NCBI GenBank assembly: GCA_045594665.1
Contig: JAZNYX010000062.1
Location: forward strand, 98,460 to 162,459
Direction of reading: 5' to 3'
Length of the DNA stretch: 64,000 nt
From: Clostridia bacterium
GTDB taxonomy: Bacteria; Bacillota; Clostridia; UMGS1883
Shown here: in pieces, positions 37,242 through 59,296 of the stretch
Layout of the letters: the number at the start of each line of letters is the position of its first letter
Numbering within the stretch: the stretch's first letter is position 1
Translations under genes and position numbers: made by a program
Notes under the pieces: generated by a model
Seen by the model: the letters and a program-made list of their open reading frames with translations, nothing else
Database searches by the model: none
What the model was told of the DNA's origin: nothing

Positions 37242-37252
37242 TTTTATTTTTT

Positions 37253-40245: not shown

Positions 40246-40275
40246 CTTTTTTACGTTTTTTTCTAAAAAATACTA

Positions 40276-40291
40276 TGTTTCACGTGAAACA
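40276..40291. promoter_or_regulatory. parS site (perfect TGTTTCACGTGAAACA, within an extended palindrome actaTGTTTCACGTGAAACAtagt)
   Basis: Exact consensus. Confidence 0.85.
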
Positions 40292-40304
40292 TAGTATTTT
40301 TCTG

Positions 40305-41984: not shown

Positions 41985-43850
41985 TTACTTTCTTTCACTT
42001 GCAAGATATATTAGAAGTACGCCTATGTCTGCCGGGCTTACTCCGCTTATTCTGCTTGCTCTTCCTATATTTTCGGGACGCATTTTCTCAAGCTTTTGTC
42101 TTGCTTCCGTTCTGAGACCGTATACCTTTGAATAATCTATGTCCTCAGGAATCAGTTTTTTCTCATTTTTAGCGAATTTTTCCACCTGCTCAAACTGTCT
42201 TTTTATATATCCCTCATATTTTACGGCTATTTCCGCTTGTTGCCATTCCTCTTTTTTAAGAACAGGTCTTTCCTTATCAAATGGGGCGAGAGATTCATAG
42301 TCAAGCTCGGGTCTTCTTATTAATTCAGCTAATTTTATACCTGTTGAAAGGGTTTGACTTCCATTTTTTTCCAAATATTGGTTGATTTCCTTGCTTGGGG
42401 GTATATTTACGGAGTTTATTCTTTCAATTTCTTTTTCTATATTTGCTTTCTTTTCAAGGAATTTATTATATCTTTCCTCGGAAATAAGTCCTATTTCATG
42501 TCCCGTGGGAGTAAGACGCAGATCTGCATTATCCTGACGGAGCAAAAGCCTGTATTCAGCACGCGAGGTAAGCATTCTGTAAGGCTCGTTTGTACCCTTT
42601 GTCACCAAATCATCTATAAGAACACCTATATAAGCTTCGCTTCTGTCGAAAATAACAGGGGAGAGGCCCTTTAATTTTCTCGCAGCGTTTATACCTGCAA
42701 TAAGTCCCTGTGCCGCCGCTTCCTCGTAACCGCTGGTACCGTTAAACTGACCTGCTCCGTAGAGATTGGGGATTTCCCTCATTTCAAGGGAGGGTTTAAG
42801 CTGCAAGGGATTACAGCAATCGTACTCAATTGCATATGCACTTCGCATTATTTCAACGTTTTCCAAGCCTTCCATAGTTCTGAGCATTGAAAGCTGAACA
42901 TCTTCGGGAAGACTTGTGCTCATTCCCTGCAAATACATTTCCTCTGTCGTAAGTCCCATAGGCTCAATGAATACCTGATGGCGCTCACGGTCGCTGAAGC
43001 GCACCACCTTATCCTCAATTGAGGGACAGTATCTGGGACCCACACCGTCAATCAAGCCGTTAAAAAGAGGGCTTCTGTGCAGATTTTCTCTTATTATGTC
43101 ATGAGTTTTTGTATTTGTGTACGTAAGATAGCAGGAAACTTTATTTTCCGCCTTTTCCTCTGTTTCAAAGGAAAAGGGAATAATATCCTCGTCCCCCTCC
43201 TGAATTTCAAGCCTTGAAAAATCAATGCTTCTTCTGTGAACACGTGTGGGCGTACCGGTTTTAAAACGCATCATTTCCACGCCTAACTTTTGAAGGCTTT
43301 CGCTAAGACCGCTTGATGGGAAAAGCCCGTCAGGACCTCCGCTGTAGGCACATTCACCGATTATTATTTTTCCCTCCATATAAGTTCCCGTGGATAAAAT
43401 TACGCTTTTTGCGTAAAATTTTGTTCCCGTATGTATGGTAAGGACAAAATTTTCTCCGTCCTTTTCAACTGTCTTTACTTCTGCCTGCCTTATATAGAGA
43501 TTTTCCTGATTTTCCAGTCTTTTTTTCATCTCTATCTGATATGCACGCCTGTCAGACTGCGCACGAAGTGAATGAACGGCAGGGCCTTTTCTTAAATTCA
43601 ACATTCTTGTCTGAATTTTGGTAAGGTCGGCTACCTTTCCCATTTCTCCGCCGAGTGCATCTATTTCGCGAACAAGATGCCCCTTTGCAGTGCCTCCGAT
43701 TGAGGGGTTGCAGGGCATATTTGCAATTGAATCAAGGTTTATTGTGAGAATAATCGTTCTCATTCCCAGTCTTGCAGATGCAAGTGCAGCTTCACAGCCT
43801 GCATGCCCTGCTCCCACAACGGCTATATCAAAATTAAATGTGTTGTCCAT
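41985..43850 (-). CDS. mnmG: tRNA uridine-5-carboxymethylaminomethyl modification enzyme MnmG (GidA)
   Basis: 621 aa; FAD-binding [10 protein letters not shown]. Confidence 0.95.
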
Positions 43851-43884
43851 ATAAATGTCACCCTTCTTTTTTTAAATGAAATAT

Positions 43885-44063
43885 AGGGGATTGTTAAGGG
43901 GTTGCCCCTTGACATAAATTCTGTCAAAAACGGGGGCGTGTACCTCGTTTTTGACTCCTTGCAGGGGCTACTGCGGTGAGCGGTGCGTGAGCGAAAGCCC
44001 CTCTCTCGAAGCGAAATATTTTCGTAAGAAACTTTTCGCTTCGAAAGGATGGCGTTGCCATCC
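43885..44063 (+). repeat. ~180-bp hairpin-rich element, copy 1 (mnmE-mnmG spacer); inverted partner at 54533-54724
   Basis: ~92% identical to the reverse complement of 54533-54724. Contains hairpins aaggggttgcccctt, gacataaattctgtc, caaaaacg..cgtttttg, tcgaagcgaaa..tttcgcttcga and ggatggcgttgccatcc. Confidence 0.7.
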
Positions 44064-44067
44064 GCCT

Positions 44068-45408
44068 TTATTTTCCGAGACAGAATTTTTCAAATATCCT
44101 GTTTACAGTTTCCTGATTTATGCTTATTCCCTCGGCTTCTCCCAAAAATTCTATTGCATTACCTATGTCTATTGCCGCAAGGTCGCTGAAAAAGCCTTCC
44201 TCCATTGTTTTTATTGCCTTTTCAATGCTTTCATATGCCCTTACCACGGCTTCAAACTGTCTTTCATTTGCTATAAAAGCGGTGCTTTCCGTGTTTCCTA
44301 CTATGTCAGACACTGCTTTTTTAACCTTTTCTATACCGTCATTTTCCTTTGCACTGATTTCAATATACCCTTCTTTTCCCTTTTCGTCAAGGTCTTTTTT
44401 ATTTGCTACAAGAATATATTCTTTTTCTTTTATTCTTTCGAGGATTTCTTCTTCTTCCTTTGTTAAATCCCTGCCGCATTCCGTTACAAATATACATATA
44501 TCGGCATTTTTAATGTAGTCGTAGCTTAAATCCACACCTATTTTTTCAACTACGTCATCACTTTGGCGGATTCCTGCTGTATCCCCGAATTTTACGGGAA
44601 TGCCGTCTATATCGGCATATTCCTCTACCACATCACGGGTTGTGCCGGCAATATTTGTAACAATAGCTTTCTTTTTCTCCACAAGGGCATTAAGGAGCGA
44701 GCTTTTACCCGTATTGGGTATTCCGCATATGGCACAATTTATACCGCTGTTTAAAGCTTCGCCTCTCCTTGCGCTTTTCTTAAGTTCTGAAAGCTCATTT
44801 TTTATATTGCGGAGTTTTCCTGATAATTCTCCGCCTGCAAATGTATCAATATCTTCTTCGGGAAAATCGCTTGCAACCTGTATTGATGCCAATAAATCAA
44901 GAAGCTCCTCACGTATTTTTATAATAGGCTTTGTTATGCCGCCCTCAAGTCTGTTCACGGCGGCATAAAGTGCGGCGTCCGTCTTGGATTCTATAATATC
45001 GCTTACGGCTTCCGCCTGGGTGAGGCTCATTTTACCGTTTAAAAAGGCTCTTTTTGTAAACTCTCCCTTTTGAGCCATTGAGCAGCCTGCCTGAAGAAGT
45101 GCATCTATTATTCTTTCCACGCTGACGGGAGAACCGTGGCAGCTTATTTCACATACATTTTCCCCGGTGAAGGAATTGGGTGTTCTGAAAACACTTACCA
45201 ATACTTCATCTATTTCATTTTTTTCACACATTGCCTTTCCGTAAACAATGGTATATCCTTCGGCTTCGGTTATTTTTTTATTGGATTTTACAACTTTTTG
45301 TGTAATTTCAAGGGCTTTTTCGCCGCTTACTCTTATTACGGAAATTCCTCCTTTTCCACGTGGAGTGGAAAGAGCGCAAATTGTATTGTTTTCTATCATT
45401 TTTATCAC
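44068..45408 (-). CDS. mnmE: tRNA modification GTPase MnmE (TrmE)
   Basis: G-domain motifs (GIPNTGKSSL, DTAG) and C-terminal FCLGK. Confidence 0.95.
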   Translation of the reverse strand: MIKMIENNTICALSTPRGKGGISVIRVSGEKALEITQKVVKSNKKITEAEGYTIVYGKAMCEKNEIDEVLVSVFRTPNSFTGENVCEISCHGSPVSVERIIDALLQAGCSMAQKGEFTKRAFLNGKMSLTQAEAVSDIIESKTDAALYAAVNRLEGGITKPIIKIREELLDLLASIQVASDFPEEDIDTFAGGELSGKLRNIKNELSELKKSARRGEALNSGINCAICGIPNTGKSSLLNALVEKKKAIVTNIAGTTRDVVEEYADIDGIPVKFGDTAGIRQSDDVVEKIGVDLSYDYIKNADICIFVTECGRDLTKEEEEILERIKEKEYILVANKKDLDEKGKEGYIEISAKENDGIEKVKKAVSDIVGNTESTAFIANERQFEAVVRAYESIEKAIKTMEEGFFSDLAAIDIGNAIEFLGEAEGISINQETVNRIFEKFCLGK

Positions 45409-45527
45409 CTAAAAAATAAGAGGCAAAAGTATACTTCTCATAAGATTTTATCTTATAAGAAAGACCTTTCACCTCTTTCTTTCTTTATTTATTTGATTTT
45501 AATCACAATCCGAAAAGGCTCAAAAGT

Positions 45528-45648
45528 AGTACAGAATTCGCGAACAGAACCCTTTAGGGCTTGCCCGAAGGCGTACGTTGGTACGTCGAGGGTGAAGTTC
45601 GTGGATAGCAAAACGATTAAATTCAGAAATTCGCAATAGCGAATTTCT
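45528..45648 (+). ncRNA. family-1 structured element, copy B
   Basis: Nearly identical to copy A (cagaaTTCGCGAACagaa-[ccctttaggg]-cttgCCCGAAGG-[cgtacgttggtacg]-tCGAGGGTGAAG-TTCGTG-gaTAGCAAAACG), then hairpin gaaattcgcaatagcgaatttc. Confidence 0.55.
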
Positions 45649-45745
45649 TCATTAAACTATAAAAGTTTATTTGTAAACCTTTCAAAGAAAATCACTAAAC
45701 ATTTTTTCTTTTTCGTTTTGCGGTCTGTGCTGCTTTTCAGGCTTT

Positions 45746-46438
45746 TTACACGCCTTCAAGTTCGTTCTCTTTACGGTTATATCTGTACTTTGAAACGTAT
45801 CCTTCACCGTATTCTCTCTTTTTCGTTGTAATTACAACAGAGCGGTTGGGGTCTTTTCCCGTTGAATAAGTAGTTACGTTTCTGTATTCCTGAAGTGCAG
45901 AATGAATAATTCTTCTTTCGTTGGGGTTCATGGGATCAAGCGTTATGCTCTTTCTTGTTCTTGCCACAATGCCTGCCATTCTCTTTGCAAGCTTTATAAG
46001 AGTTTCTTCTCTTTTTCCGCGGTAATTTTCCGTATCGATAGTAACTCTGATGTAATTTTCCTCACCCTTATTTACAACCAAGGATGTGAGATACTGGAGG
46101 GCATCGAGAGTATCGCCTCTTCTTCCGATAACCTTTCCTACTTCCTCGCTGTCGCCGATGATTTCAATATTTACTGTTTCATCCTCATAAGAAGCCTTAA
46201 TTTCTACATCAATACCAAAACTTCCCATTACGCTTTTAACGTACTTTTCAGCTTTACTTAAAGGGGTTTCCTCCATTTTAACCCTTACCTTTGCTTCTTC
46301 GGAGCCGATTCCTAAAATACCGCGCTTTCCCTCGTTAATAACTTCGATTTCTACTTCTTCTTTTGTTACTCCGAGTTCTATAAGCGCCGCATTTACTGCA
46401 TCATCAATTGTTTTTGCGCTTTTTTCTATTATTATCAT
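45746..46438 (-). CDS. jag: Jag/SpoIIIJ-associated RNA-binding protein (KH and R3H domains)
   Basis: 230 aa in the conserved position downstream of yidC. Confidence 0.85.
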   Translation of the reverse strand: MIIIEKSAKTIDDAVNAALIELGVTKEEVEIEVINEGKRGILGIGSEEAKVRVKMEETPLSKAEKYVKSVMGSFGIDVEIKASYEDETVNIEIIGDSEEVGKVIGRRGDTLDALQYLTSLVVNKGEENYIRVTIDTENYRGKREETLIKLAKRMAGIVARTRKSITLDPMNPNERRIIHSALQEYRNVTTYSTGKDPNRSVVITTKKREYGEGYVSKYRYNRKENELEGV

Positions 46439-46439
46439 T

Positions 46440-47291
46440 TTATTTTTTTCCTTTCAGAGTTATTTCCGATTGTATTTTATTAGTTATAGCCTTGTTAATA
46501 ACTGTTTGCTGTAATAATTGCAATGCTGTTGATACAAACCAATAAAGTGACATTGCAATAGGCATCATAAATATGAAGAACAATGTCATTGCAGGCATCA
46601 TCCATATCATTGTATTTCCCATGCTTGCTGCCTGTTCGTTACCCTTGCTCTGGGCTTGCATCTGCTTTTTTGTAAGAAGTGAAGATGCAACCGTTGATAA
46701 AAATGCAAGTGCAGGGAACACCCACTGCATCAGATCTTTACTTCCCGAAGGAATCTGAGAAAGGTCAATTCCTAAAAGTTTAAAATTTATAGTATATCCC
46801 TTTATGGATTCAATCGCTTCTTTTACACCATTCATGCCGCAGATATTAACGTCCTGCCCTTTAATTTTTCTTACGGCATCAATCCATTCTTTATTCTGAC
46901 CAAGCTCTTTCATTTCTTTTATAATGCTTGCTTTGTCAAGCTGAAGAATACACTCGACGGGATTATAAATAACACCGATAAATCCGAAAAGAATAAGCAT
47001 CTGAAGAATAAGGGGGAGACATCCGCCCAAAGGGTTAACGTCATACTTCTTATAAATCTTCTGCATTTCTCTTGCAAGAGTATCACGGTCGTTTTTATAC
47101 TTATTTTGAAGCTTCATTATTTCAGGCTGAATAAGCTGTGTTTTCGTAGTATTTTTCTGACTTTTTATAGTAAGCGGAATTGTGAGAAGTCTTACAAGTA
47201 TTGTAGCTACTATAAGCGTAATACCGTAGTTACCTATTAAGTTATAAATAGGTCTTATTATAAAAGCCAGCGGATCTTTTAAAATGTACAT
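46440..47291 (-). CDS. yidC: membrane protein insertase YidC/SpoIIIJ (Oxa1 family)
   Basis: Signal/lipobox-like N-terminus, 5 transmembrane helices, Lys-rich C-terminal tail. Likely start is MYILKDP at 47291. Confidence 0.9.
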   Translation of the reverse strand: MYILKDPLAFIIRPIYNLIGNYGITLIVATILVRLLTIPLTIKSQKNTTKTQLIQPEIMKLQNKYKNDRDTLAREMQKIYKKYDVNPLGGCLPLILQMLILFGFIGVIYNPVECILQLDKASIIKEMKELGQNKEWIDAVRKIKGQDVNICGMNGVKEAIESIKGYTINFKLLGIDLSQIPSGSKDLMQWVFPALAFLSTVASSLLTKKQMQAQSKGNEQAASMGNTMIWMMPAMTLFFIFMMPIAMSLYWFVSTALQLLQQTVINKAITNKIQSEITLKGKK

Positions 47292-47316
47292 ATTTTCTCT
47301 CCTTTTAGTATTCCTT

Positions 47317-47529
47317 TTAAGGAACCGGGTCATATCCGCCTTTGCAAAACGGATTGCATCTTAAAATTCTTCTTACAGACAAATAAAGCCCCTTTATAAC
47401 ACCATGCTTTCTAAATGCTTCCAAAGCATATTCAGAGCATGTGGGCGTAAAGCGGCAACAAGGTTTTTTAAGCGGTGAAATATATTTTCTGTAAAATTTT
47501 ATTAAACCTATAAAAACGTTCTTAATCAA
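47317..47529 (-). CDS. yidD: membrane protein insertion efficiency factor YidD
   Basis: 70 aa; [23 protein letters not shown] signature. Confidence 0.9.
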
Positions 47530-47857
47530 TTAAATTCAGCCCGCTTTCTCCAAGCGCACCTTCTAAATCTCTCCCAATTTCATGAAATGTTGCCTTAGCA
47601 CTGCTTGTGCGTGCCACCAAAACCAAATCATATCCTTGGGGTATACCTTGCAAAAGTCTGTAATTTTCTTTTAAAAGCCTTCTTACTCTGTTTCTTGTAA
47701 CGGCACATCCCACCTTTGGAGAAACCGTTATACCCAGTCTTGTAAAAGAATATCTGTTCTTTCTGTAATATAAAACCAGTCTCTTTTTTACAACTGATTT
47801 TCCTCTGTAATAAAGTCTTTTAAAATCGCTGTTTTCTTTGATGGAAATAATTTTCAT
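47522..47857 (-). CDS. rnpA: ribonuclease P protein component
   Basis: 111 aa, basic; [24 protein letters not shown] motif. Confidence 0.9.
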
Positions 47858-47984
47858 TTTAATTCATTTTGTGTTCTTTCCGCAAAATAAAATCTTTTAT
47901 TCCATTAAATGTATTTATGCCGGGCGGCATTAAAACCGCCCGAAGCATACTTTTACATTTTAAAAGGAATCCTTAAAAGATTAA

Positions 47985-48119
47985 TTACGCAGAAAGTACA
48001 CGTCTGCCTCTCTGACGGCGTCTTCTGAGAACCTTTCTTCCGTTAGCGGTACTCATTCTTTTTCTGAAACCGTGATCCTTTTTTCTCTTTCTTACATTAG
48101 GCTGATAAGTTCTGAGCAT
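47985..48119 (-). CDS. rpmH: 50S ribosomal protein L34
   Basis: Manual translation gives [44 protein letters not shown] (44 aa). Below the ORF-track cutoff. Confidence 0.95.
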
Positions 48120-48179
48120 CTTGTGCACCTCCTTAAATTTATAAAGCCCTTATGGGGCATTCTACCATAACGATACCAA

Positions 48180-48430
48180 TTTAGTATACATAAAGATACC
48201 TTTTTTGTCAACAATTTTTTTATTTTTTTAATTTTAGTCCATATTTTAGTTGAATTTCGTCTTTATATTTGTTATAATATATTAGATAGTATAATTATAT
48301 ATAAGGGCATTTATTAACAGTTTTTGTGTTTATTTTTTTATTATTAACAGCTTTGAAGCCCTTATATCCCTATAAAACGTGACTTATTAACAGGTTTTTT
48401 TAACAACCTTGTTAATAACTGTTAAAAAAT
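48180..48430. promoter_or_regulatory. oriC upstream box cluster with AT-rich unwinding region; four TTATTAACA repeats (48311-48319, 48341-48349, 48384-48392, and inverted at 48410-48418)
   Basis: rpmH-dnaA intergenic location; ~30-bp-spaced 9-mers resembling DnaA boxes (TTATNNACA); >85% AT stretch at 48200-48300. Confidence 0.6.
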
Positions 48431-48452
48431 TTTTTTGAAGGAATGTTTACTT

Positions 48453-49754
48453 ATGACATCTGATTTAATGCAGTTATGGACAGAGTGTCTTATTCTCATG
48501 GAGGACGAGGTTACGCCCGTAGGTTTTTCCACATGGATTAAAGACATTAAACCCGTTAAAATCAAGGATAATGTTTTAACCCTTTCCGTAAGCACAAACA
48601 TTATTAAAAACATGGTGGAGCTTCGTTACAGCGACCTTATAAAGAATACACTTACCGAAATAACAGGAAGATATTTTGAGGTTGAGTTTGTTATAGGCGA
48701 TAATTTTTATGAAAAAAGAAGACCTGCCTATTCAAATACATACGAAAAATATACCTTTGATAATTTCGTTGTAGGTAATTCAAACAGGTTCGCACAGAGT
48801 GCTTCTCTTGCGGTTGCAGAGGCTCCTGCTTATGCTTACAATCCTCTTTTCCTCTATGGAGGAGTAGGTCTTGGTAAGACGCATCTGATGCATGCTATCG
48901 GAAATTATATAAAGAGCAATAATCCTGATGCAAGGATTGAGTTTTTAAGTGCGGAAACCTTTACCAATGAGCTTATAAATTCAATTAAGGATAATACAAA
49001 CCAGGAATTTCGTGATAAGTACAGAAATATAGATGTTCTCTTGGTGGACGATATTCAGTTTATTGCAGGCAAAACTACTACAGAGGAAGAATTTTTCCAT
49101 ACATTTAACGCTCTGCATGAAGCAAATAAGCAGATAGTACTTACAAGTGACCGTCCTCCCAGCGAAATTAAAACATTGGAGGAAAGGCTTCGCAGTAGAT
49201 TTGGATGGGGACTGATGTGCGAAATACAAAGCCCCGATTACGAAACGAGAATGGCTATTTTAAGAAAAAAAGCCCAGGATGACGGAGTCCTCATAAGCGA
49301 CGATATAATTGAATTTATTGCACAAAAAATAAAATCAAATATACGTGAGCTTGAAGGAGTATTTAACAGAGTTGTTGCTTACCGCGGACTTATTAACAAG
49401 GAAATAACAATTGACGTTGCAATGGAGGCCCTTAAGGATTACGGGGATTCAAAGGAAAAGAAAATAACTCCCGAATATATAATAGAGGCCTGTGCAAATT
49501 TTTATAATGTTAAGAAAGAAGATATTTTTTCCGAAAAAAGGACAAAGGATGTGGCATTTGCCCGTCAGGTTTCTATTTATATAATAAGAGAAATTACTAA
49601 TTTCTCATTTCCTAAAATAGGCTCTTTCTTCGGAAAAGACCATGCTACAGCCATTTACGCCATAAAGCAGGTTACAAAAGCAATGGAAAATGATATAGGT
49701 ATAAAAGTTAACATTGAAGGTCTTATAAATGATATTAAAGGATCTAATAACTAA
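48453..49754 (+). CDS. dnaA: chromosomal replication initiator protein DnaA
   Basis: AAA+ motifs (GGVGLGKTHL, VDDIQF) and C-terminal DNA-binding domain. GAAGGA ribosome-binding site before the ATG at 48453. Confidence 0.95.
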   Translation: MTSDLMQLWTECLILMEDEVTPVGFSTWIKDIKPVKIKDNVLTLSVSTNIIKNMVELRYSDLIKNTLTEITGRYFEVEFVIGDNFYEKRRPAYSNTYEKYTFDNFVVGNSNRFAQSASLAVAEAPAYAYNPLFLYGGVGLGKTHLMHAIGNYIKSNNPDARIEFLSAETFTNELINSIKDNTNQEFRDKYRNIDVLLVDDIQFIAGKTTTEEEFFHTFNALHEANKQIVLTSDRPPSEIKTLEERLRSRFGWGLMCEIQSPDYETRMAILRKKAQDDGVLISDDIIEFIAQKIKSNIRELEGVFNRVVAYRGLINKEITIDVAMEALKDYGDSKEKKITPEYIIEACANFYNVKKEDIFSEKRTKDVAFARQVSIYIIREITNFSFPKIGSFFGKDHATAIYAIKQVTKAMENDIGIKVNIEGLINDIKGSNN

Positions 49755-49875
49755 CAGTTTTCTGTTAATTAACAGTCAGCCTTAAAAACTTTCAAATTTT
49801 ATTTACAGCTTTTTTAACAGGGTTATTGTTTTATAAATCCTTTTATAAAGTACCTTTTGAAAGTTATTGACAGTT
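49745..49875. promoter_or_regulatory. oriC downstream box cluster (dnaA-dnaN spacer): TAACTAACA, palindromic TGTTAATTAACA, TTTTAACAG, TTATTGACA
   Basis: Repeated TTAT/TAAT-NNACA 9-mers in the classic second oriC region. Confidence 0.5.
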
Positions 49876-49951
49876 TAAACCTTACTACTGTTACTCTATT
49901 ATTTAATATTATTATATATTATATATTCGGTCTGAAAGGATGAAATAAAAA

Positions 49952-51052
49952 ATGAAATTTTTCTGTGATACAAAAGCTTTTTCGGAAGCAATAAATATTG
50001 TTTCAAAGGCAGTTGCCGTTAAATCTCCCATTCCTCATTTAGAAGGAATCCTTCTTGATGCAAAGGGAGGTACTCTTACTCTTTTATCAAATAACCTTGA
50101 AATTTCAATTAAGACTTCCATAAGTGCAAATATAAGCGAGGAAGGAAGAATTGTTCTTAACGCAAAAATGCTTAATGATATTGTAAGAAAGCTTCCCCAG
50201 GATGTTTGTGAAGTTAATACAAATGAAAAATATAATGTTTCTATTATATGCAAAAACGCAGACTACAAAATTGTGGGACTTAATGCTGATGAATTTCCTC
50301 AGCCTCCCATGGTTGCAAAAAAAAGCAGTGTTACATTAAAAAGCGAAAAGCTTCGTGAAATAATAGGGAAAACTCTTTTTGCAGTATCTCTTGACAATGC
50401 AAGAAAGATTTTAACAGGTTCTCTTTATGAAATAGAAAATAATACCCTTACCGTTGTAGCCGTTGACGGCTACAGACTTGCTCTTACAAAAATGGAGCTT
50501 GAGGGTGAGTATGAGGATGCTAAATTCATAATTCCCGGAAAAACACAAAGCGAAATTTCAAAAATTATCAGCGGAAACAAGGAAGATGATATAAAAATAT
50601 CCTTCAGTGAAAATTATGCTCTTATAGAGGGTGAAGGAGTTACAATTACATCACGCCTTATAGAGGGTGAATTTTTCTCGTACCGCAACACAATCCCCGC
50701 AGAATCAAAATATATTGTTAAAACGGACTCGTATGCCTTTACAAAGGCTATTGAGCGTGTAGAGCCTATTATAGACGAAGTAAGCAAAAACTGCGTCAGA
50801 TTTAAATTTGGTGACGGAAATATAGTTATAAGCTGTGAAACAGTTTTAGGTAAAGTAAATGATGTTGTTGAATGTGATTACTTTGGCGAAGCTGTGGAAA
50901 TTGGTTTTAACTATAAATATCTCCATGATGCAGTTTCAAGATGTGAGGGAGACGAAATAGAGCTTAAAATGAATTCTCCTTTTAATCCTCTTATAATTAA
51001 TTCAGTAGATGACGAGAGCTGTCTTTTCATGGTTCTTCCCGTGAGAATATAA
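49952..51052 (+). CDS. dnaN: DNA polymerase III beta sliding clamp
   Basis: 366 aa, three-domain clamp, conserved position after dnaA. Confidence 0.95.
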   Translation: MKFFCDTKAFSEAINIVSKAVAVKSPIPHLEGILLDAKGGTLTLLSNNLEISIKTSISANISEEGRIVLNAKMLNDIVRKLPQDVCEVNTNEKYNVSIICKNADYKIVGLNADEFPQPPMVAKKSSVTLKSEKLREIIGKTLFAVSLDNARKILTGSLYEIENNTLTVVAVDGYRLALTKMELEGEYEDAKFIIPGKTQSEISKIISGNKEDDIKISFSENYALIEGEGVTITSRLIEGEFFSYRNTIPAESKYIVKTDSYAFTKAIERVEPIIDEVSKNCVRFKFGDGNIVISCETVLGKVNDVVECDYFGEAVEIGFNYKYLHDAVSRCEGDEIELKMNSPFNPLIINSVDDESCLFMVLPVRI

Positions 51053-51063
51053 GAGGTAAAAAA

Positions 51064-51270
51064 ATGGAAAAAATAGAAATAACAACAGAATTTATAAAGC
51101 TTGACAGTGCTCTTAAATTCTCAGGTATAGCAGAAAACGGAGTACATGCAAAGGAGCTTATTTTAGATGGAGAAGTAGAGGTAAACGGAGAAATAGAGCT
51201 TCGCCGCGGAAAAAAGCTTTATAAAGGTGATAAATTTAAAATTTTTGATGAGGAATATGAAATAGGATGA
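51064..51270 (+). CDS. yaaA: S4-domain RNA-binding protein YaaA
   Basis: 68 aa between dnaN and recF. Confidence 0.8.
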   Translation: MEKIEITTEFIKLDSALKFSGIAENGVHAKELILDGEVEVNGEIELRRGKKLYKGDKFKIFDEEYEIG

Positions 51271-52346
51271 GAGCCTCAGAGTTAAATCTTTATAATTTCA
51301 GAAACTATGAAAACGAAAAAATTTCTTTCGGCGATGAAGTAAATATAATATACGGTGACAACGGTATGGGTAAAACCAATATACTCGAGGCTGTTTATTA
51401 TTTTTCATACGGAAGAAGCTTCAGAAACGTAGGACGGGAAATTATAAAAGACGGTGAAAAAGAAAGTGCCATATCCCTTAATTTTGAAAATGAAGACAGA
51501 AAATATGAGGGCAGAATAAAATTTTTAGGCGGAAAAAGAAAAGAAATATATATAAACGACATTGAATTAAAAAAGACAAGTGAACTTTTGGGAAATTTTA
51601 TATGTGTTCTTTTTACTCCCGATGAGATGAGTATTATAAAGGGAATGCCTGAAATGAGGAGAAAATTTTGCGACAGTGCAATAATGCCTCTTCGTCCCGG
51701 ATTTATAAAAGAGCTGATAAGATACAGAAATATAGTTAATCAGAAAACGGCTCTTTTAAAATCAAGAGATTATAAAACTCTCGATATATGGAATGAAAAG
51801 CTCTCGGAATCGGGAAGTAAAATAATGATGATGAGGTCAAGCTATATAGAAAGAGTAAAGGAAAAGGCAAAGGAAATACAAAAAGAAATTTCAAAGGAAA
51901 AAGAGGACCTTGAAATTATATATAATCCGTCTGTTAAAATTGGTGATGATATTACAAAAACCAAAGAAAATTATATAAAAAAATTAAATGAATATACAGA
52001 AAAAGAAAAAGAAAATTTTTTCTGTATGGCGGGCGTTCACAGGGACGAAATAGACTTTTTTATAAACGGAAAAAACGCAAAAAATTATGCAAGTCAGGGC
52101 CAGATAAGGACAGCAGTTTTATGTCTTAAAACAGCCCAGATGGAGATAATAAAGGAAGAAACGGGAAATTATCCCGTAATGCTTTTAGATGATATATTAA
52201 GTGAGCTTGATAAAAAAAGGCGTGATTTTTTAACAAGTCAGATAAAAGGAAAACAGATAATAATAACATGTACCGATATTGAAAATTCATTTATAAGTGA
52301 AAATTCAAATATTATACAAATCAAAGACGGCAAAAAGGTGATATAA
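51267..52346 (+). CDS. recF: DNA replication and repair protein RecF
   Basis: Walker A GDNGMGKTN, SMC-like signature region. Confidence 0.9.
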   Translation: MRASELNLYNFRNYENEKISFGDEVNIIYGDNGMGKTNILEAVYYFSYGRSFRNVGREIIKDGEKESAISLNFENEDRKYEGRIKFLGGKRKEIYINDIELKKTSELLGNFICVLFTPDEMSIIKGMPEMRRKFCDSAIMPLRPGFIKELIRYRNIVNQKTALLKSRDYKTLDIWNEKLSESGSKIMMMRSSYIERVKEKAKEIQKEISKEKEDLEIIYNPSVKIGDDITKTKENYIKKLNEYTEKEKENFFCMAGVHRDEIDFFINGKNAKNYASQGQIRTAVLCLKTAQMEIIKEETGNYPVMLLDDILSELDKKRRDFLTSQIKGKQIIITCTDIENSFISENSNIIQIKDGKKVI

Positions 52347-52348
52347 AA

Positions 52349-52621
52349 ATGTTTATTCATATTGGAGAGGGAAAAGTTTTAAGAAAAAAAGAAATAGTTG
52401 GAATCTTTGATCTGGAAAACACGTCGGTAAGCAAAAAAACAAGAGAATTTCTCCGCAAAAGCGAAAAAGAAAAAAAAGTTGAGTACTTAGGGGAAGAAAT
52501 TCCAAGGACATATGTGGTAACAAAGTCGAAAGAGAAAAAGAGTGTTTATATGACGCAGATTTCTGTACAGACACTTATTAAAAGAGCAGAAAGGAATGAG
52601 TCTATTGGAACAGAAAGTTAA
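52349..52621 (+). CDS. DUF370 protein (RemB/YaaB-like) between recF and gyrB
   Basis: 90 aa, conserved syntenic small protein. Confidence 0.7.
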
Positions 52622-54542
52622 TAATTCATATGACGAAACCCAAATTCAGGTATTGGAGGGTCTTGAAGCCGTAAGAAAAAGACCCGGTATGTACATCGGT
52701 TCTACATCTGCAAGGGGTCTTCATCACCTTGTTTACGAAATAGTGGACAACAGTATAGATGAAGCATTGGCAGGATACTGTACGCAAATCGATGTTACAA
52801 TAAATGAGGACAATTCAATTACCGTAAAGGATAACGGACGAGGTATGCCCCACGGTATTCATCCGAAAATGGGAATTTCCACAATAGACGTTATTTTTAC
52901 GGTGCTTCATGCGGGCGGAAAGTTCGGCGGCGGCGGATATAAGGTTTCGGGCGGTCTTCACGGCGTTGGTGCTTCTGTTGTAAATGCTCTTTCCACAAAG
53001 CTTGAGGTAGAGGTACACGACGGTGAAAATATATGGTTCCAGAGCTATAAGAGAGGTGTTCCCGACGGAGAAGTTCATACTATAGGAAAAACCGACAGAA
53101 CGGGTACACAGGTTACTTTCTGGGCGGACGGAGAAATTTTTGAGGAAACTGTTTACGATTATGATATTCTTCTTAAAAGGCTTCGTGAACAGGCATTCTT
53201 AAACGGCGGTATAAAAATTATTTTCAAGGATGAAAGAGAAGAAAAGAGAGAGGAAATTCTTCATTACGACGGAGGTATAAAGAACTTCGTTTCTTATCTT
53301 CTTGACGATAAAAAGAGCAGAAAAGATACACTTTCCGAGATTCATCCCGAGGTAATATATGTAAGCGGAGAGAAAAACGGCTCTATGGCAGAGGTTGCTC
53401 TTCAGTGGAATAACGGGTATGATGAAGTAATTGAGTCTTTTGCAAATAATATTTCAACAACCGAGGGCGGTACTCACGAAACAGGCTTTAAAGCGGCTCT
53501 TACAAAGGTACTTGTTGAATACGGAAAAAAATATAAAATAATAAAGGATAATGAGGAGCTAACGGGTGAGGACGCAAGAGAAGGTCTTATAGCCGTAATT
53601 TCCGTAAAGCTTGAAGAACCTCAGTTTGAGGGACAAACCAAGACAAAGCTCGGAAACAGCGAAATACGCGGACTTGTGGAAAACATGCTCCGTGAAAAGC
53701 TTGCAGATTTTCTTGAGGAAAATCCCGTTGTCGGTAAAACGATAATTGAAAAAGCCCTTATGGCATCCCGTGCGAGAATTGCGGCAAGAAAGGCACGTGA
53801 AGCAAACAGAAAAACGCCATTGGGTTCAAGCAGCCTTCCCGGTAAGCTTACCGACTGTATCGTAAAAGACCCCACAATGACGGAAATTTATATCGTCGAG
53901 GGTGATAGTGCCGGAGGCAGTGCTAAAAGCGGCCGTGACAGTAAATATCAGGCAATTCTTCCTCTCTGGGGTAAGATGCTTAATGTTGAAAAGGCGAGAG
54001 AGGACAAGGTATACGGAAACGATAAGCTCACTCCCGTAATCCAAGCATTGGGAACAGGTATAGGAGCAGAATTCAATATTGAAAAGCTCCGTTACGATAA
54101 GGTTATTATAATGGCCGATGCCGACGTTGACGGTGCTCATATTCAGACGCTTCTTCTTACATTCTTCTTCAGATTCATGCGTGAACTTGTGGAACAAGGT
54201 CATATATACCTTGCAAAACCTCCGCTTTATAAGGTTTCAAGAGGAAAGAGAAGTCAGGTGGCATTCAGTGATGAAGAAAGAGATAAAATAAGTGAAGAAC
54301 TTAAAAACGGTGATTTAAATGCAAAGGTTGATATAAGCCGTTACAAAGGTCTTGGTGAAATGGACCCCGACGAGCTCTGGGAAACAACAATGGATCCAAA
54401 GAGCAGAATTCTTCTCAAGGTTACATTGGAGGATGCACAAAAAGCTGACGAAATATTCAGTATTCTCATGGGCGATGAGGTAGAGCCGAGACGCCAATTT
54501 ATTGAAGAAAATGCACAGTACGTTACCAATTTGGATGTATAA
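52596..54542 (+). CDS. gyrB: DNA gyrase subunit B
   Basis: GHKL ATPase motifs, Toprim (EGDSAGG), [13 protein letters not shown]-like region. Confidence 0.95.
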
Positions 54543-54724
54543 CATCCTTTCGAAGCGAAAAGTTTCTTTCGAAAATATTTCGCTTCGAGTAAGGGGCTTT
54601 CGCTCGCGCACCGCTCACCGCGGTAGCCCCTGCAAGGAGTCAAAAACGAGGTTCACGCCCCCGTTTTTGACAAATTTAATTGTCAAGGGGTAAACCCCTT
54701 AACAAACCCCACATTCTATGGGGA
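54533..54724 (-). repeat. ~180-bp hairpin-rich element, copy 2 (gyrB-gyrA spacer); inverted partner of 43885-44063
   Basis: Reverse complement aligns with copy 1 at ~92% identity; most differences fall in loops. Its first hairpin (ggatgtataacatcc) contains the gyrB stop codon. Confidence 0.7.
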
Positions 54725-54743
54725 GCGAAAGGAAATAAATGAT

Positions 54744-57269
54744 ATGGCTAAGAACAAAAAATACGAAGATTCCCATTTTGAGGAATATTTTGATACACAA
54801 ACCATTGTTGATATAGACATTGAAAAAAGAATGAAGGAGGCATTTATTGATTACGCTATGAGCGTTATCGTAAGCCGTGCACTCCCCGACGTGCGTGACG
54901 GTTTAAAGCCCGTTCACAGAAGAATTCTTTATTCAATGTATGAAGAAAATCTTACTCACGACAAGCCTTTCTTCAAATCGGCTACAACCGTAGGTAATGT
55001 TATCGGTAGGTATCACCCCCATGGTGATGCTTCGGTTTACGATGCACTTGTAAGAATGGCGCAGGATTTCTCTATGCGTTATCCGCTTATAGAAGGTCAC
55101 GGAAACTTTGGTAGCGTGGACGGAGACCCGCCTGCTGCATACCGTTACACGGAAGCAAGAATGAGCAAGCTTTCAAATGTTCTTCTCGAAAATATTGAAA
55201 AGGACACTGTTGATTTTGCTCCCAACTTTGATGAAAAGAGAAAGGAGCCTACCATTCTTCCCACAAGAATCCCTACACTTTTGGTTAACGGAAGCAGCGG
55301 TATTGCCGTTGGTATGGCTACAAATATTCCCCCTCACAACCTTACGGAAGTTCTTAATGGTGCAATGGCACAGATTGATAATCCCGATATAACCGTAGAG
55401 GAGCTTATGGAGCATATTCAGGGTCCCGACTTCCCCACAAGCGGTACAATTATGGGCAGAAGCGGTATCAGAAGTGCGTACAACACCGGCAGAGGAAAGG
55501 TTGTAATCCGTGCAAAGGCTGATATTGAAGAGCATAAGGATGGAACAAGCTCTATTATAGTTACACAGCTTCCTTATCAGGTTAATAAAAAAATGCTGGT
55601 TGAATCCATTGCGGCACTTGTTAAGGATAAGAAGATTGAAGGTCTTTCTGACATAGATGACCATTCTTCAGACCGTGTCGGTATACGTCTTGAAATTTTC
55701 TTAAAGAGAGATGCAAACCCCCACGTTGTACTTAATCAGCTTTATAAATATACAAGGCTTCAGGACAGTTTCAGTATAAACTTACTCGCAATTTGTGACG
55801 GTAAGCCCAAAACAATGGGTCTTAAAGAGGTTCTTGATAATTTCATCAACTTCCAGAAAGAAATAGTTACACGCCGTACAAAATATGACCTTGCAAAAGC
55901 AGAAGCAAGAATGCATATATTGGAAGGCCTCCGCATTGCACTTGCAAATATTGATGAAGTTATTGAAGTAATCAGAAATTCCTATGATGATGCTAAGGAA
56001 AATCTGATGGCTCGCTTCGGACTTTCCGAAATTCAGGCACAGAGCGTTCTTGATATGCGTCTGGCACAGCTCCAGAAACTGAACGGCGAAAAGATTGACG
56101 AAGAATTTAACGAGCTTACACTCAGAGTGGAGCAGTTTAAGGCACTTCTTGCCGATGAGCATCTTCTTATGGAGCAGATTAAGAAGGAGCTTACAGAAAT
56201 CCGCGATAAATTCGGTGATGAAAGAAAGACAGCCATTGAAAATGTAATGACTGAAATTGATATAGAGGACCTTATTGAAGAGGAAGAAAGTGTATATACC
56301 CTTACAAACAGCGGATATATAAAGAGAATCCCTGCCTCCACATACCAGAGCCAGCACCGAGGCGGCAAGGGAATCAAGGGTATGGGAACAAAGGAAGAGG
56401 ACTTTGTAGAAAGCATTATTGTGGCATCAACCCATGACCACATGCTGTTCTTCTCCTCAAAGGGCAGAATGTACAGAATGAAGGGTTATCAGATTCCCGA
56501 AGCAAGCCGTCAGGCAAAGGGAAGCGCTATTGTAAACCTTCTTCCCATTGAAAAGGACGAAAAGATAACTGCCGTAATTGCACTTCGCGAGTTTGAGGAT
56601 GATAAGTATCTTCTTATGTGTACAAGAAACGGCGTTATAAAGAAAACTGCCGTAACAGATTATGATACCTCAAGAAAAGGCGGTATTATAGGTATTTCCC
56701 TTGATGAGGGCGACGAGCTTATTAAGGTTGAGCTTACAAACGGTGAAAATGAAGTAATCGTAGGTACCTATAACGGTATGGCAATCAGGTTCAATGAGAA
56801 AGATGTACGCTCCATGGGCAGAGTAACAAGAGGCGTTAAAGCCATTACCCTCCGCGGTGACGACTATATTATAGGAATGTGCCTTGCAACAGAGGATACA
56901 CAGCTTCTTGCCGTAACGGAAAACGGCTACGGAAAGAGAACCGAGCTTTCCGAATACCGTGTGCAGAGCCGCGGCGGCGTAGGTATAAAGACCTATAAGT
57001 GCAGCGAAATAACGGGTAACGTAATAGGAATAAGATCCGTAAAGGACGGAGAAGATATTATTATGATTACCTCTGAGGGAATAATTATAAGGATTCCCGC
57101 AAGCGGTATAAGCACCATAGGAAGAAGTACAAAGGGTGTAAGACTGATGCGACTAAATGACGGCGTAAAGGTTGTTTCCATGGGCATTACCGAGCATGAG
57201 GAAGAAGAGGAAGAAGCAGAGGAAACAGACGCACAGCTCCCCGAGGAAAATGAATCTATAGAGGAATAA
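54744..57269 (+). CDS. gyrA: DNA gyrase subunit A
   Basis: Active-site region (AAMRYTE-like ...[11 protein letters not shown]), β-pinwheel C-terminal domain, acidic tail. Confidence 0.95.
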
Positions 57270-57272
57270 ATT

Positions 57273-57977
57273 ATGAATAATAAAGATAATGAAGAAACCA
57301 TGATTTTTACTCCTGTAGAGAAACAGGCGGATTCAGATGAAAATGCCTTGGAATTTAACGATGATTACATTGAAGAAGAGCTTATGAATAAAGAAGAACC
57401 CGTGGAAAAGGGAAATAAAGCTCTTATATACACTCTTGTGATTCTTTGTATTCTTCTTGTTATTGCAATAAGTGCAGTATTTCTGCTTTTAAGCACAAGC
57501 AGCCGGGAAAAAAACGAAAACCAAAATCAGGGCGGAGATATAATTTTGGAGGAAAAAGAGCCTTCCGAAGAAAAAGAAGAAGAGGAAGAAGCGGTAGAAA
57601 TTATCTCCTGCAGTATTGTTTTTTACGGCGAGAGTGCGGTGGAAAGTGACGAAGGCTATGTAATTACCGCAAAAGTAACCGATAATAAAACACAAAGGCA
57701 GAAAAAAAAGCATCTTTTGATAGATGACGATACGGAAATCAGAATCAATGGAAAAAGAGTGGCACCGGATTCCTTTATATATCTTCTGGAAGAAAAAAAT
57801 GAGGAAGCCTTGGTCTTTGATTCAAAGGTTGATGAGGAAAATGAGTATATAACCTATATTTCATTTGACGGCGATCTGAGCGAAAAAGAAGAAGAGGAAG
57901 AAGAACCTCCCGCAGAAGAAACTGAGGAAAATCCCGAAGAAGAGGAAATTATAGAGGGAATTAATTTACAAGAATAA
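57273..57977 (+). CDS. hypothetical single-pass membrane protein with highly acidic low-complexity segments
   Basis: 234 aa, one transmembrane helix (LIYTLVILCILLVIAISAVFLLL), E-rich repeats. Confidence 0.4.
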   Translation: MNNKDNEETMIFTPVEKQADSDENALEFNDDYIEEELMNKEEPVEKGNKALIYTLVILCILLVIAISAVFLLLSTSSREKNENQNQGGDIILEEKEPSEEKEEEEEAVEIISCSIVFYGESAVESDEGYVITAKVTDNKTQRQKKKHLLIDDDTEIRINGKRVAPDSFIYLLEEKNEEALVFDSKVDEENEYITYISFDGDLSEKEEEEEEPPAEETEENPEEEEIIEGINLQE

Positions 57978-57978
57978 A

Positions 57979-58020
57979 AGAAGGATGTACCTAATTAAAG
58001 GTACATCCTTCTTTTTATTT
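57979..58020 (+). terminator. rho-independent terminator
   Basis: aaggatgtacctaattaaaggtacatcctt + ctttttattttt. Confidence 0.65.
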
Positions 58021-58043
58021 TTAGGGGATCGGAAAAAATGATT

Positions 58044-58175
58044 CAGAACGGACAAACTGAGCCACGGCTTGCCGTGGGTTACCCGAAGGCGTACGTGGGT
58101 ACGTCGAGAGGCGAAGTTTGTTCGTAGCAAAAAGGCTTAAAAAACATCGAAAAATCGAAAAAATGAGATTTTTCA
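58044..58175 (+). ncRNA. family-1 structured element, copy D
   Basis: cagaaCGGACAAACtgag-[ccacggcttgccgtgg]-gttaCCCGAAGG-[cgtacgtgggtacg]-tCGAGAGGCGAAG-TTTGTTCG-TAGCAAAAAGgctt, then hairpin gaaaaatc..gatttttc. Confidence 0.55.
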
Positions 58176-58264
58176 ACCAAATTAAGAGCTTCTACAAAAT
58201 ACAAACAAGCTTAATTCCATATTATTATCGCCTTTTTGCGTTCTGGACTTTTTTTACATCCCCA

Positions 58265-59296
58265 TTACACAAGTGCATCGGCGATTGTATATATCAGCTT
58301 TTCGCTCTTTTCCCAGCCAAGGCAGGGGTCTGTAATTGATTTTCCGTAGATTCCCTCCTCAATTTTTTGACATCCGTCCTCAATATAGCTTTCAATCATA
58401 AGGCCTTTAACAAGCTTTTTAATATCGGATGAATGATTCATGCTGTAAAGAACATCCTTAGAGATTCTGATTTGCTCCATATATTTTTTTCCCGAATTAG
58501 CATGGTTTGCATCCACTATAACAGCAGGATTCTTAAGGTTTCTTTCTGCGTAAAGAGAGCAAAGCTCCATCAGATTTTCGTAATGATAATTGGGGTAGGA
58601 ATGACCCATATTGTCCACATATCCGCGAAGAATAGCATGTGTAAGGTCATTACCGGTACTCTTTACCTCCCAACCTCTGTAAAGGAAGGTGTGTCCGCTT
58701 TGCCCTGCGGTAATGGAATTCATCATAACGCTAAGGTCTCCGCCTGTGGGATTTTTCATACCCACGGGAACGTCAATGGCACTTGCGGTTAAGCGGTGCT
58801 GCTGATTCTCGGTGCTTCTTGCTCCCACGGCTACGTAGGAAAGAAGGTCTGAAAGGTATCTGTAATTTTCCGGATAAAGCATCTCATCGGCACAGGTAAA
58901 TCCCGTTTCCTTAATTGCACGCATATGAATGTCACGGATTGCGATAATGCCCTTTAACATATCAGCCTCTGCTCCGGGGTCGGGAGAATGAAGCATGCCC
59001 TTGTAACCGCTTCCCGTGGTACGGGGCTTATTGGTATAAATTCGGGGGATAATTATTATCTTATCCTTTACCTTTTCCTGCACGCCGACAAGCCTTGAAA
59101 TATAGTCAAGCACGCTGTCCTCATTATCGGCAGAGCAGGGCCCTATTATAAGCAGAAATTTATCGCTTTCGCCCCTTAAAACCTTTGAAATTTCATTATC
59201 TCTTTCTTCTTTTATTTTCTTCATGCTGTCTGTGAGAGGATACATCTCCTTTATTTCTACAGGCATGGGTAATTTTCTTTTAAATTCACAGTTCAT
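58265..59296 (-). CDS. aroG: 3-deoxy-7-phosphoheptulonate (DAHP) synthase, class I
   Basis: 343 aa; KPRTS, GARSTENQQHR-like class-I DAHPS motifs. Confidence 0.85.
   Translation of the reverse strand: MNCEFKRKLPMPVEIKEMYPLTDSMKKIKEERDNEISKVLRGESDKFLLIIGPCSADNEDSVLDYISRLVGVQEKVKDKIIIIPRIYTNKPRTTGSGYKGMLHSPDPGAEADMLKGIIAIRDIHMRAIKETGFTCADEMLYPENYRYLSDLLSYVAVGARSTENQQHRLTASAIDVPVGMKNPTGGDLSVMMNSITAGQSGHTFLYRGWEVKSTGNDLTHAILRGYVDNMGHSYPNYHYENLMELCSLYAERNLKNPAVIVDANHANSGKKYMEQIRISKDVLYSMNHSSDIKKLVKGLMIESYIEDGCQKIEEGIYGKSITDPCLGWEKSEKLIYTIADALV

Follow-up and report, generated by a model that had tools for sequence, protein, structure and literature searches.

Small structured intergenic repeats of several kinds have been described in bacteria. 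The 127-bp ERIC/IRU element is base-paired, lies in transcribed operon spacers, is co-transcribed with its neighboring genes, occurs as filled and empty sites, and affects mRNA stability in an orientation-dependent manner (PMC2229807). The Correia/NEMIS elements of Neisseria (~100–155 bp) vary in length through internal modules and often lie beside coding regions, and their stem-loop transcripts are substrates of RNase III (PMC2229807). In the Bacillus cereus group, the repeats bcr1–bcr18 (~155 bp) are not conserved in distribution among close strains and are transcribed as untranslated regions (UTRs) or operon spacers; their structure is preserved through compensatory changes, with a loss of stability in some copies (PMC3184786, PMC3446304). 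REP/BIME sequences for the most part follow coding regions, in the gaps between open reading frames (ORFs) that run in one direction or converge, may overlap or supply the stop codon and are plausible RNA elements (PMC3733652), and REP stem-loops stabilize the upstream mRNA (PMC3184786). Here we analyzed a stretch of 64,000 nucleotides from a Clostridia bacterium (GenBank assembly GCA_045594665.1, contig JAZNYX010000062.1, positions 98,460 to 162,459 of the forward strand), hereafter the window, in which an inverted pair of hairpin-rich sequences brackets a 10.5-kb segment around dnaA. We consider it fairly probable that the two arms are copies of a new family, termed family A, of small, strain-variable, structured intergenic insertion elements of the ERIC/Correia/bcr type, which reside in transcribed spacers and are gained and lost among related uncultured gut or rumen Clostridia.

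The window was compared with the origin regions of ten genomes retrieved by a GyrB search (L002–L006 and L130–L134), which have GyrB identities of 92–98% and, for the seven compared by blastn, nucleotide identities of 71–92%. Copy 1 (43880–44067, minus strand) occupies the spacer from mnmE to mnmG, with approximate bounds, here as for copy 2, deduced from filled versus empty sites (empty in L005, L006, L130, and L132). It starts 1 nt past the mnmE stop codon TAA (44068–44070) and ends ~12 nt before the mnmG Shine–Dalgarno (SD) sequence. Copy 2 (54543–54726, plus strand) lies in the spacer from gyrB to gyrA directly after the gyrB stop codon TAA (54540–54542), the empty site being 20–21 nt in L002, L003, and L004. 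A sequence-only reading of this DNA had described an inverted pair of ~180 bp and ~92% identity, which is what blastn recovered (43886–44051 against 54710–54543, 169 nt, inverted, 92.9% identity, E = 1e-63). A repeat search of the window delimited two inverted arms of 138 nt (43914–44051 and 54543–54680) that are 93% complementary, and the longest exact run common to both copies is 30 nt. A covariance model built from six family A copies matched copy 1 at 43876–44066 with 227.5 bits and copy 2 at 54530–54719 with 211 bits. With the filters off, these two (227 and 211 bits) were the only copies in the window, the next best matches scoring below 30 bits and corresponding to the reverse strand of the same hairpins or to generic palindromes.

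Both copies fold far more stably than shuffled sequences (copy 1, −74 kcal/mol, z = −5.6; copy 2, −80.8 kcal/mol, z = −6.8), yielding five main hairpins. Eleven of the 12 differences between them fall in loops or linkers, the remaining one being a C·A mismatch in hairpin 3 of copy 1, and each copy is sense-oriented relative to its own operon. The chain of hairpins, the concentration of differences in loops and the common orientation relative to the local operon, all proposed by the sequence-only reading, were thus borne out. So was its view that a peptide common to both copies is spurious: LTPCRGY... is encoded by the antisense frame of both. A conserved small ORF within family A was rejected, given that the ATG of copy 1 is ATT in copy 2.

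Hairpin 1 of copy 1 (44047–44063, minus strand) reads GGATGGC-AAC-GCCATCC, with compensatory changes at four of six pairs, and that of copy 2 (54533–54547, plus strand) reads GGATGT-ATA-ACATCC; the stem sequence differs between the copies and the pairing is retained. Hairpin 2 (copy 1, 44005–44045, minus; copy 2, 54549–54589, plus) consists in copy 1 of a 12-bp stem, an internal loop and a 4-bp apical stem, and its variants AAG/CTT, CAA/TTG, and CAATT/AATTG all keep the pairing. Hairpin 3 (copy 1, 43963–44002, minus; copy 2, 54592–54631, plus) has an outer stem (A)GGGGCU/AGCCCC(U), an inner stem ACCGC/GCGGU and a conserved UCACC loop; in the copy of a metagenome assembly (L009) the inner stem is GGCAC/GUGCC, which amounts to three compensated pairs. 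A conserved single-stranded linker, UGCAAGGA, precedes hairpin 4 (copy 1, 43923–43955, minus; copy 2, 54639–54671, plus), in which GUCAAAAACG and CGUUUUUGAC enclose a nearly invariant 13-nt loop, AGGUACACGCCCC. This loop is kept in every intact copy, with one base different in copy 2 (A to U). Hairpin 5 of copy 1 (43892–43914, minus) is UGUCAAGGGG-CAA-CCCCUUAACA, followed by the C-rich tail AAUCCCC (43882–43891). In copy 2, the corresponding region (54680–54723, plus) comprises hairpin 5 (54680–54705) and a hairpin 6, CCCCACAUUCUAUGGGG (54707–54723). The 3′ end of the element is therefore modular: the hairpin 5 module is absent from the jag|mnmE copy of L005 and the mnmE|mnmG copy of L134, and copies at the gyrB|gyrA site add the sixth hairpin, as seen in the window, L005, and L132; in L133 the 3′ arm of this hairpin has diverged (GGAT for GGGG).

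The consensus fold of nine related copies, derived from the same alignment that was used to evaluate it, comprises 52 pairs in the five main hairpins. A standard pair is formed in 98% of the sequence-by-pair cells, and 16 of the 52 pairs are changed on both sides. None of 500 column shuffles reached any of five measures, and sliding the partners by 1–3 columns left 38%–54% pairing. The base pairs are kept by compensatory substitutions above the level of these controls, as in a structured RNA or single-stranded DNA (ssDNA) element under constraint. The compensated variants of hairpin 2 (TCGAAGCGAAA/TTTCGCTTCGA, TCGCAACGAAA/TTTCGTTGCGA, and TCGCAATTAAA/TTTAATTGCGA) and those of the inner stem of hairpin 3 (ACCGC/GCGGT and GGCAC/GTGCC) are all paired, and both variants of hairpin 4, GTCAAAAACG and GTTAAAATCG, have the matching partner arm. 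Conservation extends to three unpaired parts, namely the hairpin 4 loop AGGTACACGCCCC, the hairpin 3 loop TCACC, and the linker TGCAAGGA. The sense strand has 13 G·U pairs versus 5 A·C mismatches, which weakly favors folding of this strand.

Comparison of the spacers revealed that site occupancy varies strongly among the relatives. At gyrB|gyrA, family A is present in the window and, as same-site counterparts of copy 2, in L005 (with a nested insert of 113 nt), L133, and L132 (decayed), and unrelated structured inserts are found in L130 and L131; the site is short or empty in L002, L003, and L004, as given above, and in L134 and L006 (36–39 nt). At mnmE|mnmG, family A occurs in the window, L002, and L134, and as a 5′ fragment with hairpin 1 in L133; a second family, termed family B, takes this site in L003/L004 and L131, and 8–22 nt make up the empty site in L005, L006, L130, and L132. 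The equivalent of copy 1 in L002 is 99.5% identical. The jag|mnmE spacer carries family A in L005 and family B in the window and L133, and the dnaN|yaaA spacer carries family A in L132 and L134, with a 35-nt 5′ fragment in L002. Two further copies come from a metagenome assembly, at grpE|dnaK in L007 and at ybaB|recR in L009. Altogether, family A comprises 13 copies or fragments at no fewer than six insertion sites. Its distribution is out of step with relatedness as judged by GyrB. It is absent from gyrB|gyrA in genomes with 98% identical GyrB, and most relatives lack one or both copies of the pair. The further copies considered in the sequence-only reading thus exist at other sites and in other genomes, with none elsewhere in the window, and the gyrB|gyrA spacer, for which conservation among relatives had been thought worth checking, is not conserved, being empty or filled by family A or by unrelated inserts. 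A scan of a metagenome collection with a 21-mer from the most conserved hairpin matched three loci, including the L007 and L009 copies. A scan of 185,579 species genomes (one per species) with a 25-mer matched one locus, in a Clostridia metagenome-assembled genome (MAG; JAZTXM010000005.1), this 25-mer being specific to the window-type variant and saying little on copy number in other species.

All 13 copies or fragments are in sense orientation and start 0–4 nt after the upstream stop codon (TAA or TGA); the chance of an all-sense set is ~0.016 if orientation is random and the six sites are independent. The element is ~150–195 nt long. When the 35 nt at the start of the element were aligned locally with the reverse complement of its final 35 nt, the score for five copies equaled the mean of shuffled sequences, indicating no terminal inverted repeat (TIR), and filled/empty comparisons at four sites showed no target-site duplication (TSD) beyond ambiguous A runs. 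No Rfam family was found in the window at gathering thresholds, and permissive matches were chance hits to hairpins only, such as Clostridiales-2 with 15.4 bits against a gathering score of 58.6. There was no match in plasmids or phages by BLAST or in viral contigs by pattern scan; a 15-mer scan of the latter gave 120 chance loci (L010–L129), none of them a real copy, the query being too short. Six-frame translations of the element, used as protein queries for spurious ORFs elsewhere, also found no match. Neither a promoter nor a sense-strand terminator was predicted in either copy, and terminator-like sites were predicted on the antisense strand only, in both. A promoter inside the element and an intrinsic terminator were accordingly rejected, the former by promoter prediction and the latter for want of a hairpin plus U tract on the transcribed strand of either copy. 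In the dnaN fragment of L002 and the mnmE fragment of L133, hairpin 1 and the beginning of hairpin 2 are left, up to an AAAAG microhomology; both fragments are therefore deletion remnants.

Family B shows the same behavior. Five copies of ~220–260 nt, 68%–80% mutually identical, are found in the window (6976–7233, 14121–14378, 36964–37205, 45523–45736, and 58018–58266), respectively downstream of a cotF-like gene, the aspartate kinase gene, a DUF4130 gene, jag, and the DAHP synthase gene. All five are in sense orientation, with their start at the upstream gene's stop codon. The family is polymorphic in the relatives, being present or absent; Rfam gave no match to it at either gathering or permissive thresholds. 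Two of its copies follow genes that run head-on to replication, at 36964–37205 (plus strand, after the DUF4130 gene, left of oriC) and at 58018–58266 (minus strand, after the DAHP synthase gene, right of oriC); the orientation of family B therefore tracks transcription rather than replication.

Family A resembles each of the described repeats in part. Like ERIC, it is small, non-coding and highly base-paired, lies in operon spacers and is filled or empty between relatives; ERIC differs in having short TIRs, TA termini and a TSD, in occurring in both orientations and in belonging to proteobacteria, whereas in family A both TIR and TSD are lacking and every one of the 13 copies is in sense orientation next to the stop. 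Like Correia/NEMIS, it varies in length by modules (hairpins 5 and 6 present or absent, and the 113-nt nested insert in L005), but the 24-bp TIRs, TA duplication, IHF sites, promoters and hundreds of copies of the Correia elements were not seen in family A. The bcr repeats are likewise from Firmicutes, similar in size, strain-variable and of compensated structure; bcr1 differs in being flanked by a 5-bp direct repeat and in having tens to ~100 copies, and the Rfam and BLAST searches made revealed no sequence related to family A. The overlap of hairpin 1 with the gyrB stop codon recalls REP, which however are single palindromes of 20–40 bp with a GTAG or CGTC tag, high in copy number and linked to RAYT transposases (definition in PMC3733652). 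Family A was not assigned to REP/BIME, being a chain of five to six different hairpins over 150–195 nt with two copies in 64 kb. Nor is it a plain MITE (miniature inverted-repeat transposable element), another suggestion of the sequence-only reading: it is small, non-coding and dispersed over at least six sites with filled and empty states, so that the mobile small element stands, but the lack of TIR and TSD and the apparently low copy number speak against a MITE proper. A repeat of ~190 bp from Bacillus subtilis, reportedly mentioned in the 1997 genome paper, is said to occur in about ten copies on either side of the origin and within transcription units, to have a compensated secondary structure and to have been proposed as a structural RNA; it is likened to family A by description only. 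We thus place family A among the small structured intergenic repeats, a known and heterogeneous kind, as a new family that only partly fits an element derived from IS200/IS605. Its notable features are the exclusive sense orientation, the position beside the stop codon and, at the gyrB site, an initial hairpin made from host codons.

Based on these features, we propose a putative model for family A. The element would be co-transcribed with the flanking genes, as suggested by the lack of a predicted promoter or sense-strand terminator, and would act, if at all, as RNA in the form of an intercistronic or 3′-UTR chain of stem-loops. These stem-loops might protect the 3′ end of the upstream cistron or supply sites for endonucleases of the RNase III or RNase Y type. 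Such processing or protection would uncouple the stability of the two cistrons, by analogy to ERIC, NEMIS, and REP. The sense-only and stop-adjacent placement would be largely the outcome of selection. Given that empty spacers of only 8–40 nt hold the stop codon, the SD sequence and the ATG, the only harmless insertion point would lie right after the stop; moreover, the terminator-like hairpins of the antisense strand would be polar inside an operon, so that inverted copies would be disfavored. Since the operons flanking the origin diverge and all copies are in sense orientation, an inverted pair arises automatically. The mirror symmetry about oriC, pointed out in the sequence-only reading and without support as a designed feature, is thus most likely incidental, the inverted repeat around dnaA being a by-product of sense-only insertion into diverging operons and not origin architecture.

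Spread between lineages would involve homologous recombination of element-bearing alleles. Compared with L002, mnmG and mnmE of the window are ~8.6% divergent, and yet a tract of 300 nt (43807–44106) has only two mismatches (binomial P ~8e-10). This tract consists of the element and ~40 nt of each flank, the flanks alone giving P ~0.005. As the conserved tract extends past the element, an allele recently shared through homologous recombination is likelier than constraint on the element alone, pointing to a recent recombinational exchange of the element-bearing allele between lineages ~92% identical here. A second kind of exchange is hinted at within the window: the center of copy 2 is 95%–97% identical to copy 1 versus 86%–92% to the same-site copies elsewhere, both of its ends being closer to the latter, a pattern of small counts that may reflect gene conversion between the two copies.

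Several points weigh against the insertion-element reading. The search for a transposase partner, TIR, TSD or conserved target motif found none of them, so that transposition is at most a candidate mechanism; presence and absence could largely come from recombination and deletion. In the scans described above, the 25-mer and the 21-mer matched one and three loci, respectively, as expected of a low-copy family of narrow range and not of a classic high-copy MITE. Between the window and L133, the gyrB|gyrA copy has 28 differences in 184 nt versus 25–26 per 200 nt in the flanking coding DNA, and the window copy has site-specific 3′ features in common with L005, L132, and partly L133. Judged from these sequences, the gyrB|gyrA copy looks old and vertically inherited, and an old copy with its structure kept also fits a retained function. 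Intrastrand template switching at quasipalindromes could produce paired changes without selection. Furthermore, all family A sites are in genes that are probably co-directional with replication, and the argument for transcription over replication rests on family B only.

The first alternative to be weighed is a non-autonomous ssDNA element mobilized in trans by an HUH-type enzyme, either in the style of the palindrome-associated transposable elements (PATEs) of IS200/IS605 or IS91-like. Here the hairpins would be DNA recognition structures, and an active strand confined to the lagging-strand template would make the mirror symmetry about oriC a true one. Family A does resemble PATEs in lacking TIR and TSD, in being hairpin-rich and strand-specific, and in having hairpin 1 at its 5′ end and hairpin 5 or 6 at its 3′ end; its hairpins are compensated with conserved loops, its limits are sharper on the 5′ side than on the 3′ side, where hairpin 5 is lost or hairpin 6 added, and the 13 G·T-tolerant pairs versus 5 A·C point to the sense strand, which is the lagging-strand template in both window copies given an oriC at ~48–50 kb. 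The orientation of family A in the window in fact fits the lagging-strand-template and the transcription rule alike, with no copy after a head-on gene available. However, no TnpA partner was found, and the ~250 kb of window and relatives contain no nearby transposase; the 5′ end is preceded by no fixed target of 4–5 nt, only by a stop codon (TAA or TGA) with different bases before it, and hairpins 1 and 5, at the left and right ends, are unrelated in sequence. The large scans yielded very few copies. In addition, family B obeys the same stop and sense rule, yet two of its five copies are on the leading-strand template, and as this sister family follows transcription, the lagging-strand ssDNA explanation of family A is weakened by analogy. 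We therefore consider an HUH-mobilized element unlikely.

A second alternative arises from hairpin 1 at the gyrB|gyrA site. There, the left arm and loop consist of the last gyrB codons and TAA (54533–54542), and the insert's first 5 nt, CATCC, provide the right arm; at most sites, hairpin 1 is element-borne, e.g., GGATGGC-AAC-GCCATCC. In the window, GGATGTATAA is followed by CATCC, and in L005, GGACGTATAA is followed by CGTCC (GGACGTATAACGTCC), the insert having changed in step with a synonymous substitution in gyrB. The same gyrB end and the unrelated insert of L130 form a perfect 13-bp hairpin, GGATGTATAATGC-TAAAC-GCATTATACATCC. The hairpin at the end of gyrB could have arisen because a stem at the stop codon is selected for, by templated mutation, or as the signature of an insertion mechanism. 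In the last case, families A and B and the unrelated inserts might form a class that is actively targeted to the first nucleotides after a stop codon in sense orientation. Its mechanism would be coupled to transcription or translation, for example through an RNA or R-loop intermediate, and its first hairpin would originate from copying of, or pairing to, the last codons of the host, as suggested by the GGAYG...CRTCC covariation and the L130 hairpin. If true, bacterial non-autonomous elements would thereby have a new way of choosing their targets; we consider this reading quite improbable.

Two structured inserts of the gyrB|gyrA spacer deserve a separate description. In L130 (11938–12182), the unrelated insert of 235 nt begins with the perfect 13-bp palindrome formed from the gyrB end codons and stop, and continues as a series of short hairpins with CGATAT/ATATCG on either side of each one. 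It has no second copy in the window and relative sequences compared and no Rfam match at gathering or permissive thresholds. In L005 (12027–12140), the hairpin-rich 113-nt segment is nested in the family A copy, replacing the 3′ arm of hairpin 3, and no other copy was found among the loci compared.

We also consider quite improbable a dedicated cis-regulatory RNA that tunes gyrA against gyrB and mnmG against mnmE. Such a role would agree with the strong structure conserved by covariation, with the old gyrB|gyrA copy common to the window, L005, L132, and L133, with the predicted pairing of the C-rich tail of copy 1 to the mnmG SD region and with the pairing of TCCTTT and AAAGGA over the gyrA SD sequence in relatives. 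It is contradicted by the spacers of the closest relatives, which lack the element (gyrB|gyrA of 20–21 nt in three and mnmE|mnmG of 8–22 nt in four) or hold unrelated inserts instead (L130, L131, and L003). Moreover, the element precedes unrelated genes (mnmE, yaaA, dnaK, and recR), is anchored at the upstream stop and not at the downstream start, and has no predicted sense-strand terminator. An element that serves specifically to attenuate or process mnmG and gyrA, as had been put forward earlier, is consequently not supported: family A is absent in relatives with 98% identical GyrB, anchored to the stop and found before unrelated genes. As for the gyrA SD sequence itself (GAAAGGA), it is preceded by a complementary TCCTTT (or TCCTT or CCTTT) in L005, L132, L130, L131, and L006, that is, with or without family A, and the window copy is without this complement. 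The two motifs may form a hairpin that sequesters the SD sequence.

C-rich small RNAs (sRNAs) of Firmicutes, of the RsaE/RoxS type, pair with SD regions. A trans-acting or 3′-UTR-derived sRNA is accordingly conceivable, in which the C-rich hairpin 4 loop ACACGCCCC and the tail AAUCCCC would pair with the SD regions of targets. The loop and tail are conserved across copies while the stems vary, and 27 nt of the hairpin 4 stem-loop recur in an unrelated GC-rich organism. On the other hand, the sense strand has no predicted promoter or terminator, a regulator would not usually exist in several strain-variable copies, Rfam gave no match, and the proposal is one of resemblance only, which makes it highly doubtful. 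The GC-rich organism is represented by a human-gut contig (L008) that carries a different hairpin-chain element at 2860–3016, scoring 33 bits with the family A model. Its 27-nt stretch is identical to family A hairpin 4 including the 13-nt loop (AAAAACGAGGTACACGCCCCCGTTTTT), and this sequence match suggests a hairpin 4 module common to distant hosts. Upstream of the element, an open frame of at least 80 codons ends with TAG at 2857–2859; no ORF with a start codon was listed there, which leaves the adjacency to a stop uncertain.

Finally, a functional inverted pair that would promote inversion of the 10.5-kb origin segment by RecA, as raised by the sequence-only reading, or its gene conversion, is extremely improbable. 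In its favor are the inverted arrangement, the 93% identity at 10.5 kb and the closeness of the center of copy 2 to copy 1, the last being compatible with gene conversion. Against it stand a longest identical run of 30 nt, a gene order and orientation identical to the window in all ten relatives, including L005 with its own inverted pair, and the lack of one or both copies in most relatives, showing that the pairing is not maintained.

The insertion-element reading would add previously undescribed structured families of uncultured gut and rumen Clostridia, located at the junction of stop codon and SD sequence in essential operons, namely gyrB-gyrA, mnmE-mnmG, dnaN-yaaA, grpE-dnaK, and ybaB-recR. 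The filled and empty sites would provide natural pairs, differing by chains of ~190 nt, for the effects of intercistronic structure on the stoichiometry of gyrase subunits or of MnmE and MnmG. In work with MAGs, such elements can give spurious ORFs, disrupt spacer comparisons based on synteny, and serve as strain markers.

The gene context agrees with the flanking genes and the midpoint near dnaA given by the sequence-only reading, as judged from Pfam, ORF translations and GC skew. Pfam domains identified mnmG (41985–43850, minus), mnmE (44068–45408, minus), dnaA (48435–49754, plus), gyrB (52596–54542, plus), and gyrA (54744–57269, plus), together with jag, yidC, rnpA, recF, and an ORF for a RemA-like protein. 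The genes yidD (47317–47529, minus), rpmH (47985–48128, minus), dnaN, and yaaA (51064–51270, plus) were assigned from ORF and translation only. The cumulative GC skew has its minimum at ~48–50 kb, and the midpoint of the pair, at ~49.3 kb, falls inside dnaA.

Other structured sequences were observed in the window. Just upstream of mnmE, the jag|mnmE spacer has a terminator-like structure of ~70 nt with three stems and a U-run end (~45412–45483, minus; GAAAGAGGTGAAAGG...CTTTTGCCTCTTATTTTTT), which, unlike the neighboring repeats, is conserved in L002, L003, L005, L130, L131, L133, and L134. It may be an attenuator or leader for mnmE-mnmG. A direct repeat of 64 nt at 11380–11443 and 17974–18037 is 83% identical, begins with TGACAA..TATTATGGGAAT, and may represent a shared promoter or leader. 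In addition, exact or nearly exact palindromes of 30–59 nt with 84%–100% self-complementarity are located at 28106–28144, 30850–30894, 32075–32133, 37200–37248, 40266–40301, 57976–58015, and 60149–60178. The two that were compared with the ORF map, 37200–37248 and 57976–58015, sit between convergent genes, and the palindromes of the window are probably bidirectional terminators.

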